Source: Alphaproteobacteria bacterium (GTDB lineage Bacteria; Pseudomonadota; Alphaproteobacteria; GCA-2731375). From it: a stretch of DNA of 64,000 nt. The stretch is taken from assembly GCA_965232515.1 (NCBI GenBank), contig CBDDPY010000002.1, positions 5,408,001 to 5,472,000 on the forward strand, written 5' to 3'. The notes below the pieces were generated by a model. It was given only the letters and a program-made list of their open reading frames with translations, did no database searches and was not told where the DNA came from. This document shows, one piece after another, positions 45,939 to 50,394 of this stretch (position 1 is the first letter of the stretch; every line of letters begins with the position of its first letter). The position numbers were made by a program, and so were the translations under genes.

Positions 45939-47081
45939 ATGACCGTCATGCCGCGCACACTGTTCAGCGACGAGCATCAGATGTTTCGCGACCAGGTTCG
46001 GCGTTTCGCCGAGACCGAGATCGCGCCGCATCACGACGCGTGGGAGAAGGCCGGCCAGGTGCCGCGCGACGTCTGGCGCAAGGCCGGCGAGCTCGGCATG
46101 CTCTGCTCGTCGATGCCGGAGGAATATGGCGGCGGCGGCGTCGACCGGCTCTACAGCGTGATCGTCATGGAGGAGCTGGCCCGCGTCGGCGCCACCGGCC
46201 CCGGATTCGGCCTGCATTCCGAGATCGTCGCGCCCTACATCAACCGCTACGGCTCGGAAGACCAGAAGCGCGACTACCTGCCCAAGATGGCGCGCGGCGA
46301 GATCATCGGCGCCATCGCCATGACCGAGCCCGGCACCGGCAGCGACCTCCAGAGCGTGCGCACCTCGGCCCGCAAGGACGGCAACGAGCTGGTGGTGAAC
46401 GGCAGCAAAACCTTCATCACCAACGGCCAGAACGCCGATCTGGTGATCGTGGTCGCCAAGACCGATCCCGACAAGGGCGCCAAGGGCACCAGCCTGGTGC
46501 TGGTCGAGGCCGGCGCGGAAGGCTTCCGCAAGGGCCGCAACCTGGAAAAGATCGGCCTCAAGGCGCAGGACACGTCGGAACTCTTCTTCGATGACGTCCG
46601 CGTGCCGATGACCAACCTGCTGGGCGAGGAGAACCAGGGCTTCATCTACTTGATGCAGGAGCTCGCCTGGGAGCGTCTGCAGGTCGCCATCTCGGCCGTC
46701 AGCAACGCCGAAGCCGCGCTCGACTGGACAGTCGCCTACACCAAGGAGCGCAAGGCCTTCGGCAAGTCGATCGCCGACTTCCAGAACACCCGCTTCAAGC
46801 TGGCCGAGATCAAGACCGAGGTCACGGTCGCCCGGACGTTCGTCGACCGCTGCCTCGAGATGATGCAGGCGGATCAGCTCGACGCGGCGACCGCGGCCAT
46901 GGCGAAATACTGGTGCTCGGATCTGCAGTGCAAGGCGATCGACGAGTGCCTGCAACTTCACGGCGGCTATGGCTACATGTGGGAATATCCCATCGCCCGC
47001 GCCTGGGCCGACGCCCGCGTGCAGCGGATCTATGCGGGCACGAACGAGATCATGAAAGAAGTCATCGCCCGCACGCTTTAG
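45939..47081 (+). CDS. Acyl-CoA dehydrogenase (LCAD-like)
   Basis: AMTEPGTGSDLQ, GSKTFITNG, QDTSELFF, QLHGGYGYM.EY, IYAGTNEIMK. Confidence 0.93.
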   Translation: MTVMPRTLFSDEHQMFRDQVRRFAETEIAPHHDAWEKAGQVPRDVWRKAGELGMLCSSMPEEYGGGGVDRLYSVIVMEELARVGATGPGFGLHSEIVAPYINRYGSEDQKRDYLPKMARGEIIGAIAMTEPGTGSDLQSVRTSARKDGNELVVNGSKTFITNGQNADLVIVVAKTDPDKGAKGTSLVLVEAGAEGFRKGRNLEKIGLKAQDTSELFFDDVRVPMTNLLGEENQGFIYLMQELAWERLQVAISAVSNAEAALDWTVAYTKERKAFGKSIADFQNTRFKLAEIKTEVTVARTFVDRCLEMMQADQLDAATAAMAKYWCSDLQCKAIDECLQLHGGYGYMWEYPIARAWADARVQRIYAGTNEIMKEVIARTL

Positions 47082-47112
47082 CGACCGCCGGCTTGTCGAG
47101 GGGTCATAATCG

Positions 47113-47445
47113 GTGATTAACGAGCTGCGGATCTACGAGATCTTCAACGACAACAGTCCCGCCTTCCACGCGCGCTTCCGCGACCATGCCGCGCGGCTGA
47201 TGCGCGACCACGGCTTCAACATCCTGGCCATGTGGGAGACGCGCACCGACAAGCGCCTGGAATTCGTTTACCTGCTGGCCTGGCCCGACGAGGCCACACG
47301 CGACGCCGCCTGGGAAAAATTCATGGCTAACGACGAATGGGCCGCTATCAAGCGTGAAACCGCCGCCGAGCACGGCAGCATGGTCGGCGAGATCGAGGGC
47401 CGCATCCTGCGGCCGACGGACTATTCGGCGGCGTTGTCGGGTTAG
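47113..47445 (+). CDS. NIPSNAP family protein
   Basis: ELRIYE, HARFRDH, FVYLL.W.D, AWEKF..D.EW, L.PTDYS. Confidence 0.82.
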   Translation: MINELRIYEIFNDNSPAFHARFRDHAARLMRDHGFNILAMWETRTDKRLEFVYLLAWPDEATRDAAWEKFMANDEWAAIKRETAAEHGSMVGEIEGRILRPTDYSAALSG

Positions 47446-47469
47446 CTGATACCCTGATTAGACCGTTGT

Positions 47470-47539
47470 CGTCACCCTGGCGGAGGCCAGGGTCCATTTG
47501 CGACCGCTGCCGTGGATACTGGCCTTCGCCAGTATGACG
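47470..47539. repeat. CGTC-type REP doublet (inverted pair of 27-nt hairpin units)
   Basis: CGTCACCCTGGCGGAGGCCAGGGTCCA (47470-47496) and reverse-strand CGTCATACTGGCGAAGGCCAGTATCCA (47513-47539); each forms an 8-bp stem. Confidence 0.8.
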
Positions 47540-47554
47540 AGGGGTGTGGTGTCC

Positions 47555-47583
47555 TTGACACACTCCGCTCAATCCCCTATCTC
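47555..47583 (+). promoter_or_regulatory. sigma70 promoter of the leader-thrS transcript (probably leaderless)
   Basis: TTGACA (47555-47560)-N17-TATCTC (47578-47583); ATG at 47591 follows after 7 nt; no SD. Confidence 0.75.
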
Positions 47584-47590
47584 CCGCCAC

Positions 47591-47683
47591 ATGCACGTAT
47601 CGATCGCCATATCGGCTGTCACGACGCAGACGACGACCACGACGACCCGCACCGGCGGGCCGTGGCGGGATCGTGTGCGCTGA
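47591..47683 (+). CDS. Threonine-rich attenuator leader peptide (30 aa)
   Basis: MHVSIAISAVTTQTTTTTTRTGGPWRDRVR; 9 Thr codons (6 ACG, 3 ACC) within 11 codons; directly upstream of a terminator and thrS. Confidence 0.88.
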   Translation: MHVSIAISAVTTQTTTTTTRTGGPWRDRVR

Positions 47684-47710
47684 TCGAACGGCAGACATAA
47701 GCGAAACCCC

Positions 47711-47747
47711 AAGGCCCCGCCGGCGACGGACGGGGCCTTCGCTTTTT
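47711..47747 (+). terminator. Attenuator (intrinsic terminator)
   Basis: AAGGCCCCG-CCG-gcga-CGG-a-CGGGGCCTT followed by CGCTTTTT; 5' arm can alternatively pair with 47652-47661. Confidence 0.85.
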
Positions 47748-47793
47748 CGGCCTGTGCCCGGTCCGTCTCCGCCTTGCAGACATGGAGAATGAG

Positions 47794-48981
47794 ATGGACC
47801 CCCTTGATCACCGCGCCATCGGCAACGAGATGGACCTGTTCCACCAGCAGGAGGAGGGCGCCGGCCAGGTATTCTGGCACCCGCGCGGCTTCGCCCTCTA
47901 TCAGGTCGTGGAGAGCTATATCCGCAAGCGCATGCGGCAGGCCGGCTTTCGCGAGGTGCGCACCCCGCAATTGCTGGCCCGCGGCTTGTGGGAGCGCAGC
48001 GGCCACTGGGAAAAGTTCGGCGAGAATATGTTTGCCCTCGACGACGGCCACCAGACCCTGGCCCTCAAACCCATGAGCTGTCCCGGCCATATCCAGATCT
48101 TCAACAAGCGCGTGCGCTCGTTCCGCGATCTGCCGCTGCGCCTCGCCGAGTTCGGCGCCTGCCACCGCAATGAGCCGTCGGGCGCGTTGCAGGGCCTGAT
48201 GCGCACCCGCGCCTTCGTCCAGGACGACGCGCACGTATTCTGCGCGCCCGAACAGATCGCGCCCGAGGTGGCGCGGTTCTGCGGCCTGTTGCGGCAAATC
48301 TATGCCGACTTCGGCTTCGACGAGATGATCGTCGGTTTCTCGACCCGGCCCGAGGTGCGCGCCGGCGAGGATTCCGTTTGGGATCAGGCCGAGGCGGCGT
48401 TGGAACAAGCGGCGCGGTCGGCCGGTGTCGACCACCGCTTGCAGCCGGGCGAGGGCGCCTTCTACGGGCCGAAGCTCGACTTCTCGCTGCGCGACAACCG
48501 GGGTCGCGAATGGCAGTGCGGCACCGTGCAGGTCGATCTCGTCCTGCCCGAACGGCTCGACGCGGCATATGTCGATTCCGACAACAGCCGGCGCCGGCCC
48601 GTGATCCTGCACCACGCCGTGCTGGGCAGCATCGAGCGCTTCATCGGCGTGCTGCTGGAGCACCATCAGGGCCGCCTGCCGCTCTGGCTTGCGCCCGAGC
48701 AGATCACGATCGCCAGCATCGCCGAGGCGCAGGCGGACTATGCCGCCGCGGTCGCCGACCGTTTCGCCGAGGCTGGCTTCCGTCCCGCCCTCGACGCGCG
48801 CCCGGTCCGCTTGCCGCGAAAGATTGTCGACGCGCATGCCGCTGGCATACCCCTGCTCGCCGCGGTCGGCGCGCGCGAGGCGAAGGCGGACAGCATCGCG
48901 CTGCGTGGCAATGGCGCCGACAATGAGGTGATCGCCATTGACGTCGCCCTCGACCGCCTGCGGCCGGACGCGTTTCGCTGA
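47794..48981 (+). CDS. thrS: Threonine--tRNA ligase, short form lacking N-terminal TGS/editing domains
   Basis: Begins at DHR.IG.EMDLF; SGHW, KPMSCPGH, HRNEPSGAL.GLMR.R.F.QDDAH, GEGAFYGPK, WQCGTVQ, H.A.LGSIERF, LP.WLAP; start ATG 47794 (GGAG) or 47782. Confidence 0.93.
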   Translation: MDPLDHRAIGNEMDLFHQQEEGAGQVFWHPRGFALYQVVESYIRKRMRQAGFREVRTPQLLARGLWERSGHWEKFGENMFALDDGHQTLALKPMSCPGHIQIFNKRVRSFRDLPLRLAEFGACHRNEPSGALQGLMRTRAFVQDDAHVFCAPEQIAPEVARFCGLLRQIYADFGFDEMIVGFSTRPEVRAGEDSVWDQAEAALEQAARSAGVDHRLQPGEGAFYGPKLDFSLRDNRGREWQCGTVQVDLVLPERLDAAYVDSDNSRRRPVILHHAVLGSIERFIGVLLEHHQGRLPLWLAPEQITIASIAEAQADYAAAVADRFAEAGFRPALDARPVRLPRKIVDAHAAGIPLLAAVGAREAKADSIALRGNGADNEVIAIDVALDRLRPDAFR

Positions 48982-49020
48982 CGGTTGTCGCGGGATTCGA
49001 AACCGCGTTAGCCTCGGCGC

Positions 49021-50394
49021 ATGTTGTCGCCGCTCGCCGACCGCACCTATCGCCGACTGTTCACGGCGCAGGTCATCGCGCTCGCCGGCACCGGGCTCTC
49101 GACCGTGGCGCTGGCGCTGCTCGCCTACGAGCTTGCCGGCGGCGCGGCGGGCGCGGTGCTGGGCACGGCGCTGGCGCTGAAGATGGTGGCCTATGTGGGC
49201 ATCGCGCCCGTCGTCGGCGGTTTCGCGCACCGGCTGCCGCGGCGCGGCCTGCTGATCGGGCTCGATATTCTGCGCGCGGGCTGCGTCGCCTGCCTGCCGT
49301 TCGTCACCGAGGTCTGGCAGATCTATCTGCTGATCTTCCTCCTGAACGCCGGCTCCGCCGGTTTCACGCCAACGTTCCAGGCGACGATACCCGACGTGCT
49401 GACCGACGAGGCGCGTTATACCAGGGCGTTGTCGCTGTCGCGCCTCGCCTACGATCTCGAAAACCTGTTGAGCCCGACGCTGGCCGCGGCCGCGCTGCTG
49501 GTGCTGAGCTACGACGCGCTGTTTGCCGCCAACGCGTTGGCATTCCTAGCCTCGGCGGCCTTGGTGTTCTCCGTGCGGCTGCCGTCGCCGGCGCCGCAGG
49601 AGCGCGGTCGCGGCGTCTGGCGCAACCTGACGTTCGGATTGGCGGTCTATCTGAAGACGCCGCGTCTGCGCGGCCTGCTGGCGCTGTCGCTGGCGGTGGC
49701 GTCGGCCGGCGCCATGGTCATCGTCAACACCGTGATCTATGTGCGCGAGGGCTTGAGCGGCGGCGAGAGCGCGACGGCGCTTGCCTTCGCCGCGGCTGGC
49801 GGCGGCTCGATGATCGTGGCCCTGCTGCTGCCGCGGCTGCTCGACCGCCTGCCCGACCGGCCCTTCATGCTGCTGGGCGGCATGCTCCTGGGCCTGGGGT
49901 TGCTCATGGGTTTGGCGAAGCCGGACATGACCGGGCTGCTGGCGGTCTGGTTCGTGCTGGGCGTCGGCATGTCGTTCGTGCAGACGCCGGCCGGCCGGCT
50001 GCTGCGGCGCTCGGCCCATGCCGGCGACCGGCCGGCGGTCTATGCCGCGCAGTTCGCGCTGTCGCACGCCTGCTGGCTGCTGGCCTATCCATTGGCCGGC
50101 TGGCTCGGCGGCACGCTCGGCCTGCCGTTGACCTTCGCCGTGCTGGCCGCTCTCGCCCTGTCGGCAACGGTGCTGGCCGTGCTGCTCTGGCCGGCGACGG
50201 ACCCCGAAGAGCTCATGCACGAGCACGGCGCCATGGCGCACGCGCACCTGCATGTGCACGACGAGCATCATCAGCACGCACATGAAGGCTGGGAAGGACC
50301 GGAACCGCACAGCCACCCGCACCGACACGGGCCGGTGCGGCACCGCCATGCCTATGTGATCGACCTGCACCACCCGGCCTGGCCGGGCCGATGA
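49021..50394 (+). CDS. MFS transporter, NreB-like, with His-rich C-terminal tail
   Basis: YRRLFTAQVIAL.GTGL.TVAL, KMVAYV, FTPTFQATIPD, SRLAYDLE, FALSHACWL; tail HEHGAMAHAHLHVHDEHHQHAH...HSHPHRH...DLHHPAWP. Confidence 0.88.
   Translation: MLSPLADRTYRRLFTAQVIALAGTGLSTVALALLAYELAGGAAGAVLGTALALKMVAYVGIAPVVGGFAHRLPRRGLLIGLDILRAGCVACLPFVTEVWQIYLLIFLLNAGSAGFTPTFQATIPDVLTDEARYTRALSLSRLAYDLENLLSPTLAAAALLVLSYDALFAANALAFLASAALVFSVRLPSPAPQERGRGVWRNLTFGLAVYLKTPRLRGLLALSLAVASAGAMVIVNTVIYVREGLSGGESATALAFAAAGGGSMIVALLLPRLLDRLPDRPFMLLGGMLLGLGLLMGLAKPDMTGLLAVWFVLGVGMSFVQTPAGRLLRRSAHAGDRPAVYAAQFALSHACWLLAYPLAGWLGGTLGLPLTFAVLAALALSATVLAVLLWPATDPEELMHEHGAMAHAHLHVHDEHHQHAHEGWEGPEPHSHPHRHGPVRHRHAYVIDLHHPAWPGR

Follow-up and report, generated by a model that had tools for sequence, protein, structure and literature searches.

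A run of Thr codons in the leader peptide thrL, coupled to a terminator and an antiterminator, controls the biosynthetic genes of the E. coli thr operon from a Shine-Dalgarno-led start, and this leader carries the Rfam family name Thr_leader. Leader-peptide attenuation with cognate codons also governs an aminoacyl-tRNA synthetase gene, E. coli pheST, through the pheM leader. A second threonyl-tRNA synthetase (ThrRS) of Bacillus subtilis, the full-length product of thrZ, is silent until ThrS or threonine becomes limiting. Multiple T-boxes precede thrZ (PMC3997798, PMC2494555). Codon-run attenuation is known or predicted for the trpS and leuS leaders of Streptomyces (PMC1262725), and leaderless leaders are described ahead of alaS, leuS, trpS and thrS of S. 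lividans, where a thrL is proposed upstream of thrS (PMC8079986). Here we describe a locus in which a run of Thr codons and a terminator precede a short thrS gene. It occupies positions 47555-48981 of a 64,000-nucleotide (nt) stretch, referred to as the window, from an Alphaproteobacteria bacterium (GenBank assembly GCA_965232515.1, contig CBDDPY010000002.1, positions 5,408,001 to 5,472,000 of the forward strand). Judged from the sequence, it is likely that a ribosome-mediated transcription attenuator sensing the charging of Thr-tRNA drives an auxiliary ThrRS that has no editing domain.

The locus shares features with each of these systems. As with thrZ, an auxiliary ThrRS would lie behind a leader terminator that reads tRNA-Thr charging; the sensor of thrZ is a tRNA-binding T-box RNA, whereas here it would be a translated codon run, with no T-box match. 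Leader-peptide attenuation of a synthetase gene by cognate codons would be common to this locus and pheST. The run of Thr codons coupled to a terminator and a putative antiterminator resembles E. coli thrL, and two homologous leaders (L116 and L120) mix Thr, Val and Ile; thrL differs in controlling biosynthetic genes and in its Shine-Dalgarno-led start. The S. lividans thrL has two Thr codons and no clear terminator, whereas the leaders described here have 4-9 Thr codons and a covarying terminator (PMC8079986). The gene behind the present leader is a truncated paralogue found in Alpha- and Betaproteobacteria.

The product also has described counterparts. Anabaena T2 (thrS2) is an editing-impaired, stress-only ThrRS that works beside an accurate housekeeping enzyme able to edit in trans; T2 retains a degenerate form of the N-terminal editing domain and is under zinc-responsive repression by Zur (PMC4787780), whereas here the editing domain is missing altogether and a Thr-codon leader would take the place of Zur control. 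ObaO is encoded in a biosynthetic cluster, and since the construct studied spans residues 241-637 it is a full-length ThrRS; its resistance to obafluorin and borrelidin comes from G463S, and L489M is also present (PMC11252418). Like ObaO, the short ThrRS would be a second copy that keeps the cell alive when the housekeeping enzyme fails. The protein covers exactly the span of the laboratory delta-N ThrRS (E. coli residues 242-642; PDB 1EVK, 1EVL and further entries); unlike that fragment, engineered for crystallography, it belongs to a natural, conserved gene clade.

The attenuation logic itself is thus already known from thrZ, pheST and the Streptomyces synthetase leaders, and what appears to be new is the cassette with a natural, mobile, editing-less ThrRS clade. 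Any claim of complete novelty must be tempered by the charging-induced auxiliary ThrRS of Bacillus and by the thrL-thrS arrangement of S. lividans. No account of a Thr-leader attenuator on a truncated bacterial ThrRS was found in open-access full text, supplements excluded, or in Rfam 15. A 2022 review of duplicated synthetases names T2 as the only bacterial ThrRS duplicate and does not use "attenuat-", "leader peptide" or "T-box" (PMC9437257).

All features of the locus lie on the plus strand. The promoter consists of a -35 hexamer, TTGACA (47555-47560), a 17-nt spacer and a -10 hexamer, TATCTC (47578-47583). Seven nt past the -10 hexamer, at 47591, is the ATG of a short open reading frame (sORF) of 30 codons (47591-47683, with TGA at 47681-47683) that encodes MHVSIAISAVTTQTTTTTTRTGGPWRDRVR. 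All nine of its Thr codons, six ACG and three ACC, fall within the 11 codons at 47621-47653. An earlier note on this DNA, made by reading the letters alone, had placed a TTGACA-N17-TATCTC promoter with its start point at or near this ATG and had described a 30-aa peptide with nine Thr codons; hexamers, spacer, ATG and peptide are all as it said. The same layout recurs in homologous leaders. A match resembling TTGAC-N16-19-TAnnnT ends 5-10 nt ahead of the first in-frame sORF ATG in 26 of 27 loci. In an alignment of 26 sequences (A2) few upstream columns are invariant, and these include TTGAC and the ATG; in every locus the first ATG past the -10 box opens the frame that contains the Thr run. 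Since no space is left for a Shine-Dalgarno sequence before the sORF, translation of the leader peptide most likely uses a leaderless mRNA, and the window sORF is probably leaderless too. Leaderless leaders have been reported for S. lividans (PMC8079986), and mycobacterial Cys attenuators are likewise reported to use leaderless translation (bioRxiv 10.1101/834739). The Thr codons of 27 leaders (ACC 82, ACG 63, ACA 5, ACT 5) differ at their third base, in proportions that follow ordinary usage, which in five window genes is ACC 64, ACG 43, ACA 4 and ACT 1; the Thr run therefore appears to be conserved as codons.

Downstream of the sORF lies an intrinsic terminator (47700-47747) made up of a main stem (47712-22/47727-38), an outer stem (47700-05/47738-43) and a T-run (47743-47747). 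The main stem has 11 pairs, a GCGA loop and a bulged A47730, in agreement with the GCGA tetraloop and T-run noted before. The minimum free energy (MFE) fold of 47585-47790 (-88.4 kcal/mol, z -1.91; 7 of 200 shuffles fold equally well) contains this terminator and a long imperfect 1:2 hairpin joining the Thr-codon stretch to the 3' part of the sORF. The full helix of the latter spans 47612-47687, and its apical part, with a CCCGC/GCGGG core (47637-47668), forms a putative "protector". The candidate 5' strand of an antiterminator, CCGGCGGGCC (region 2, 47652-47661), can pair with 47713-47723, within the terminator, through 10 pairs and one bulge (duplexfold -25.9 kcal/mol, reached by 5 of 200 shuffles).

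Conservation of these structures was scored on A2 with shuffles and slid partners as controls. The terminator is paired in 92.6% of cells and 6 of its 11 pairs have changed on both sides; none of 500 shuffles reaches this conservation and slid partners reach at most 60%. RNAalifold, run on 22 less redundant sequences, recovers the terminator hairpin independently and nothing else. The putative antiterminator is paired in 83.1% of cells against 31-56% for slid partners, and its evidence is this conserved complementarity. The mean energy of its duplex is -22.1 kcal/mol versus -22.3 for the terminator hairpin. In one locus (L167) all three strands are altered together (GGTGGG, CCCACC, GAATGGGG). 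Depending on the locus, the GGCGG core of region 2 encodes Gly-Gly, Arg-Arg or Gly-Arg, and in L148 a stop codon comes directly after the core and the motif is kept. The peptide past the Thr run is not conserved as protein and the RNA motif is. Since the motif is kept across reading frames, region 2 appears to be constrained as RNA.

The leader is specific to short thrS genes. Loci were gathered by protein among the matches listed in contig and metagenome scans, most of them full-length thrS genes that thus served as the control set, and were classed by the upstream open frame as short (31), long (184) or, at contig ends, unclassifiable (7). When the 465 nt upstream of non-duplicate loci were scanned, a sORF with at least 4 Thr in 8 codons was found before 25 of 29 short-form genes and 2 of 169 full-length genes; with at least 5 Thr in 8 codons the counts were 21/29 and 1/169. 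The four short-form misses (at 4 Thr) are of three kinds: i) a contig (L036) that begins inside the leader, with the Thr run still visible; ii) two loci, L116 (genome G416) and L120 (G301), whose leaders, MQSIILTVVTIKVTAT... and MQNVILTVVTIKVAAA..., have Thr mixed with Val and Ile codons; and iii) L178, which is a full-length-type gene in the tree described below. One of the control hits, L133 (598-722, G104:C1), is a real full-length thrS with its own promoter, a Thr-rich leaderless sORF (MIRPTTLTGTTTATRCGGP) and a different terminator. It is the sole thrS match of its genome and nests among ordinary full-length genes in the tree.

Outside the class and within the same phylum, all four further short forms carry a Thr-run leader and the same terminator: those of Burkholderia sp. 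M701 (plasmid pM7012), Caballeronia sp. SBC2 (pSBC2-1) and genomes G490 and G754, the last two from family f244. The plasmid loci inspected were two of the four best plasmid hits. In pM7012, a 582-kb plasmid typed as conjugative (MOBF), the whole cassette is present (L225; NC_022995.1, 2750-4209). It is annotated there only as thrS, and a TonB-dependent siderophore receptor gene lies 1.6 kb downstream. Overall the arrangement is fixed beside the short thrS clade in 29 of 33 loci, in two classes and with plasmids included. The expectation in the earlier note that ThrRS homologues of about 400 aa would be preceded by a Thr-rich sORF and a terminator is therefore borne out.

A covariance model of the leader (R1; 114 positions, built from 22 sequences) recovers all 10 held-out short loci, with scores of 60-99 bits, although four are near-copies of training rows. 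Among 90 full-length loci it detects L133 only (24.6 bits) at E <0.01. A genome-wide scan for a Thr-run leader with a terminator returned seven candidates, one of which is that of the window; two other candidates that were inspected lie inside longer coding frames and were set aside.

The short thrS (47794-48981) encodes a 395-aa ThrRS with catalytic and anticodon-binding domains only. Its open frame (47782-48981) permits 399 aa, and the likely true start is the second ATG, at 47794, where gene callers and homologues start and which has a Shine-Dalgarno sequence, GGAGAA (47784-47789), 4 nt upstream. The threonine--tRNA ligase model TIGR00418 matches with 450.9 bits (cut-off 383.65) over model positions 167-562 only, and Pfam finds tRNA-synt_2b (PF00587) and HGTP_anticodon (PF03129) and nothing else. 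The N-terminal TGS and editing (tRNA_SAD) domains are thus absent from the protein, and the DNA directly 5' of the gene is the leader rather than coding sequence. Solved ThrRS structures match the protein at E 1e-122 or better; in the alignment with E. coli ThrRS (1qf6; E 1e-121), its residues 5-389 correspond to residues 243-628. The motifs around the three zinc ligands (CPGH, DDAH, LHHA) are present; we take these ligands to be Cys334, His385 and His511 in the E. coli numbering. From this domain content the enzyme should charge tRNA-Thr and should be incapable of proofreading Ser-tRNA-Thr. An Anabaena T2 mutant lacking N1 and N2 has null editing (PMC4787780). In the genome of the window, tRNA_SAD occurs only in three open frames: one of 888 aa, read as AlaRS, the 664-aa frame of the full-length ThrRS, and a free-standing one of 309 aa.

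The 664-aa frame identifies the short ThrRS as an auxiliary copy. The genome (7.39 Mb, 4 contigs) holds a full-length thrS, detected as a match at C2:3849506-3850660 with 57% identity, so that both the second thrS predicted in the earlier note and the auxiliary standing it gave the short gene hold. Within the family, 33 genomes were searched and the short gene was found in this genome and one congener (G024) only. Ten of 401 sampled genomes of the class carry the short form, in a tally that includes two genomes (G270 and G071) with one thrS match each. All ten have two thrS matches, one of which sits in an open frame of 399-547 aa; the second matches that are listed (for G000, G067, G238, G243 and G301) have frames of 643-683 aa. 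The 120 best-matching clusters of the protein database all range from 371 to 426 aa in length and from 65 to 100% in identity, so at least 120 clusters at 90% identity have the short-form length; among their source names are Ferrovibrio, Azospirillum, Kiloniellales, Stellaceae and Minwuiales.

For a maximum-likelihood tree, 28 short rows were combined with 60 full-length ones, namely L002, L133 and 58 drawn at random from the 169 non-duplicates; L147 was left out for a stop inside its match. In this tree 27 of the 28 short forms constitute one clade with a Shimodaira-Hasegawa-like approximate likelihood ratio (SH-aLRT) of 100. The remaining one, L178, which lies on a 2-kb contig and had been a candidate for a short form without leader, is placed among the full-length genes. 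The tree and the recurring arrangement together argue for a promoter-leader-terminator-short thrS cassette of single origin that moves as a unit. Its location on a conjugative plasmid and its patchy distribution (10/401) suggest that it behaves like an accessory, transferable trait.

These features suggest the following mechanism. Transcription would begin at or beside the ATG of the leaderless 30-codon sORF. When Thr-tRNA-Thr is plentiful, the ribosome would pass the Thr codons and reach the stop, and region 2 would be masked or would re-pair with the stretch of Thr codons; RNA polymerase would then be halted about 45 nt ahead of thrS by the GC-rich hairpin at 47712-47738 with its T-run. A drop in charging, whether through Thr shortage or because the housekeeping ThrRS fails or is inhibited, would stall the ribosome on the early Thr codons. 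Region 2 (47652-61), left free, could pair with the emerging 5' arm of the terminator and the polymerase would read into thrS. The product, having catalytic and anticodon-binding domains only, would charge tRNA-Thr with no proofreading of Ser-tRNA-Thr.

Folding of the RNA that exists before the 3' arm of the terminator is made partly supports such a switch. In this pre-terminator test the mean paired probability of the 5' arm was scored over the loci. It was 0.77 with a ribosome at the first Thr codon, 0.75 at the middle Thr codon and 0.55 at the last, compared with 0.55 in the absence of a ribosome and 0.58 when one sits on the stop codon. The direction fits the attenuator model, with a gain of more than 0.2 in only 12 of 26 loci.

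Several results weigh against the attenuator. In an equilibrium test on 26 loci, in which the full leader was folded with 28 nt around the stalled A site blocked, the mean terminator probability was 0.97 without a ribosome; when the lowest value over the Thr codons was taken for each locus, the mean was 0.77, and this lowest value fell below 0.2 in only 2 of 26 loci. A thermodynamic switch is thus not reproduced: with both arms present, the terminator wins even when the ribosome is stalled. The leader of the window itself does not discriminate in the pre-terminator test (0.79 free, 0.83 stalled, 0.82 with the ribosome at the stop); it has a second GGCGGG at 47664-69. The antiterminator shows one compensatory pair, and shuffles do as well since both of its strands are nearly invariant; its duplex beats 95% of composition-matched shuffles in just 11 of 26 loci, with a mean z of -1.7. 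The protector helix is paired in 61% of the cells of A2, and a slide of -3 still gives 50% because ACG/ACC repeats permit slipped pairings; it is also absent from the RNAalifold consensus of 22 sequences. On these two grounds it finds no support as a conserved structure. The T-run is interrupted (TTCGCTTTTT), and a consensus scan of 47000-49500 found 0 promoter-like and 0 terminator-like sites, because the -10 hexamer departs from TATAAT, the stem is bulged and the T-run is broken. RNA-library contigs, described below, show no transcript ends, and DNA may be present in the libraries.

The claims made earlier for the switch accordingly divide. The 10 pairs with one bulge of the proposed antiterminator can form, and their complementarity is conserved among homologues; the protector hairpin exists in the MFE fold of the window and is poorly conserved elsewhere; and covariation among homologous leaders is found in the terminator (6 of 11 pairs) and not in the antiterminator (1 pair). 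Since neither the equilibrium test nor the window leader discriminates, the switch would have to be kinetic. The decision in the E. coli trp leader is likewise kinetic.

The best surviving alternative to transcription attenuation is that control is mainly translational, or dual, with the position of the ribosome on the sORF shifting alternative pairings that hide or free the thrS Shine-Dalgarno sequence and with termination secondary. A CTCCGTC-like element follows the terminator in many loci, being TCCGTCTCC at 47762-47770 in the window, and is predicted to be complementary to two stretches, the terminator 3' arm (GGACGG) and the Shine-Dalgarno region of thrS (ACGGAG). The Shine-Dalgarno sequence of the short thrS, that of the window included, is predicted to be paired (probability unpaired <0.3) in 25 of 25 loci, and when the 5' arm of the terminator is blocked, this sequence becomes more accessible by over 0.1 in 10 of 25 loci and less accessible in none. 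However, GC-rich RNA pairs easily, and these predicted figures cover the native short-thrS leaders alone; a release of at most 0.1 is predicted for the other 15 of 25 loci; and some loci (L061, L064) have no obvious match to an anti-Shine-Dalgarno element. The best conserved and only covarying structure is the hairpin with the T-run, and mainly translational or dual control appears improbable by comparison with transcription attenuation.

It could also be supposed that the sORF and hairpin are a separate small gene or small RNA with its own terminator, that thrS has its own promoter, and that the Thr run is a property of the protein. Leader peptides can act in trans, as peTrpL does in Sinorhizobium, and the dominance of the terminator at equilibrium would suit such a gene. 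The arrangement, however, is fixed beside one gene clade across classes and plasmids, merely ~45-60 nt separate the terminator from the thrS start, and what is conserved past the Thr run is the RNA motif and not the peptide. RNA-library contigs bridge the terminator as well: four runs from three studies contain related sequence, about 90-99% alike, in contigs that span 47300-48008, 47620-47804 and 47613-47813 and so extend past the terminator, into thrS. They give a weak hint of leader-thrS co-transcription, as they lack end information and may derive from DNA. A separate small gene is thus very unlikely.

E. coli thrS is controlled through an operator mimic that ThrS binds. The idea that a factor other than the ribosome (tRNA-Thr through a T-box, ThrS on an operator mimic, or a small molecule on a riboswitch) reads the leader has precedents in such controls on thrS genes elsewhere, T-boxes on thrS and thrZ among them (PMC3997798, PMC2494555), and is hardly credible here, where cmscan with 4227 Rfam families at E up to 10 finds no T-box, riboswitch or leader match in 47000-49500, the terminator is the only de novo consensus structure, and what is conserved is a start codon followed, in frame, by a run of synonymous Thr codons. 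The sole Rfam signal on the leader at that threshold is a weak sX6 hit on the terminator.

With ribosome-mediated attenuation as the preferred reading, the role of the enzyme can be considered. General back-up charging would rank first, bypass of a ThrRS inhibitor second, and a low-zinc isozyme third. The inhibitor-bypass idea, raised in the earlier note with borrelidin and obafluorin in mind, gained no direct support. The residues altered in ObaO, equivalent to E. coli Gly463 and Leu489, are unchanged in the short ThrRS (FYGPK and LVLP are kept), and no biosynthetic cluster was recognized by Pfam in 10 flanking open reading frames (ORFs) of other loci. An ObaO-type inhibitor-resistant ThrRS was rejected on these two counts. 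The short clade does differ from full-length enzymes beside two zinc ligands. Residue 95, just before the zinc-ligand Cys, is Ser in 27/27 short rows versus Asn in 60/60 full-length rows, and residue 274, after the third ligand, is His in 24/27 short rows versus Arg in 60/60 full-length rows. On a bolder reading, taken up below and granted only a small chance, these substitutions could adapt the enzyme to low zinc or to inhibitors that disable the housekeeping ThrRS.

The product, a natural and mobile clade of ThrRS enzymes that lack an editing domain, is of greater interest than the attenuator itself. To our knowledge, thrS control in Alpha- and Betaproteobacteria has been little studied, and the cassette, if the reading is true, would be a clear case of codon-run attenuation of a synthetase gene in these classes. 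Enzymes that are silent unless charging fails would make the trade-off between fidelity and continuity under amino-acid stress testable, and the compact leader (~155 nt) could serve as a sensor of Thr-tRNA charging. A bolder view, for which we would claim only a small chance, is that the cassette is a mobile, self-sensing bypass of Thr-charging failure with a deliberately error-prone enzyme. On this view a ThrRS lacking proofreading would be induced when Thr-tRNA falls and would keep ribosomes moving by charging tRNA-Thr with Thr and, at Thr scarcity, Ser, and the housekeeping enzyme would restore fidelity only to the extent of its editing in trans. The outcome would be regulated Thr-to-Ser mistranslation in response to starvation or inhibitors.

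Downstream of the short thrS, 39 nt after its stop, lies a gene for an MFS transporter with a His-rich C-terminal tail (49021-50394, plus strand; TIGR00900-like, MFS_1 and MFS_3). There is no obvious terminator between the two genes, and in the sister species the gap is ~610 nt; the transporter gene is possibly co-transcribed with thrS in this genus only. A conserved operon partner was sought and rejected, as the MFS, NIPSNAP and acyl-CoA dehydrogenase neighbours recur in the sister species only. The ten flanking ORFs at other loci encode SIMPL, FUSC, MerR/TipAS, MFS and HSP90 proteins, a glutamine amidotransferase-transglutaminase fusion, and four proteins without a family. Some of the neighbours are efflux-like (MFS here; FUSC, MerR/TipAS and MFS elsewhere), which is anecdotal. 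Just 5' of the promoter is a 95-nt palindromic stretch (47458-47552) that is identical in the sister species, between variable flanks. The genome contains 28 matches to it, of which about a dozen are nearly full-length with 72-89% identity, and it looks like a dispersed repeat of the repetitive extragenic palindromic (REP) or miniature inverted-repeat transposable element (MITE) type.

In the genome of the window, R1 detects one further element (44.4 bits; C2:3424840-3424951, minus strand, locus L231/L239). It has a promoter, a leaderless sORF (MRYRPATTLKLKTFLIPGTEGFCAR) and the same terminator motif, which occurs in the genome twice only, here and in the thrS leader. The element precedes a secondary dapA paralogue that scores 228 bits; the genome has three dapA matches above the cut-off, the highest at 325 bits. 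The sister species retains the element with LKLK (AAA codons) intact, and the dapA leader may therefore be Lys-sensing, as its codons suggest. On the bolder view given above, the dapA leader would be a hint that leaderless attenuators ahead of back-up paralogues form a larger group. A related terminator (AGCCCCGCCGGCAACGGACGGGGCT) with conserved upstream RNA is also found twice (L234, L238) in a genome that has no short thrS (G029), and one of these copies precedes an ORF that we take to be a methyltransferase-like start.

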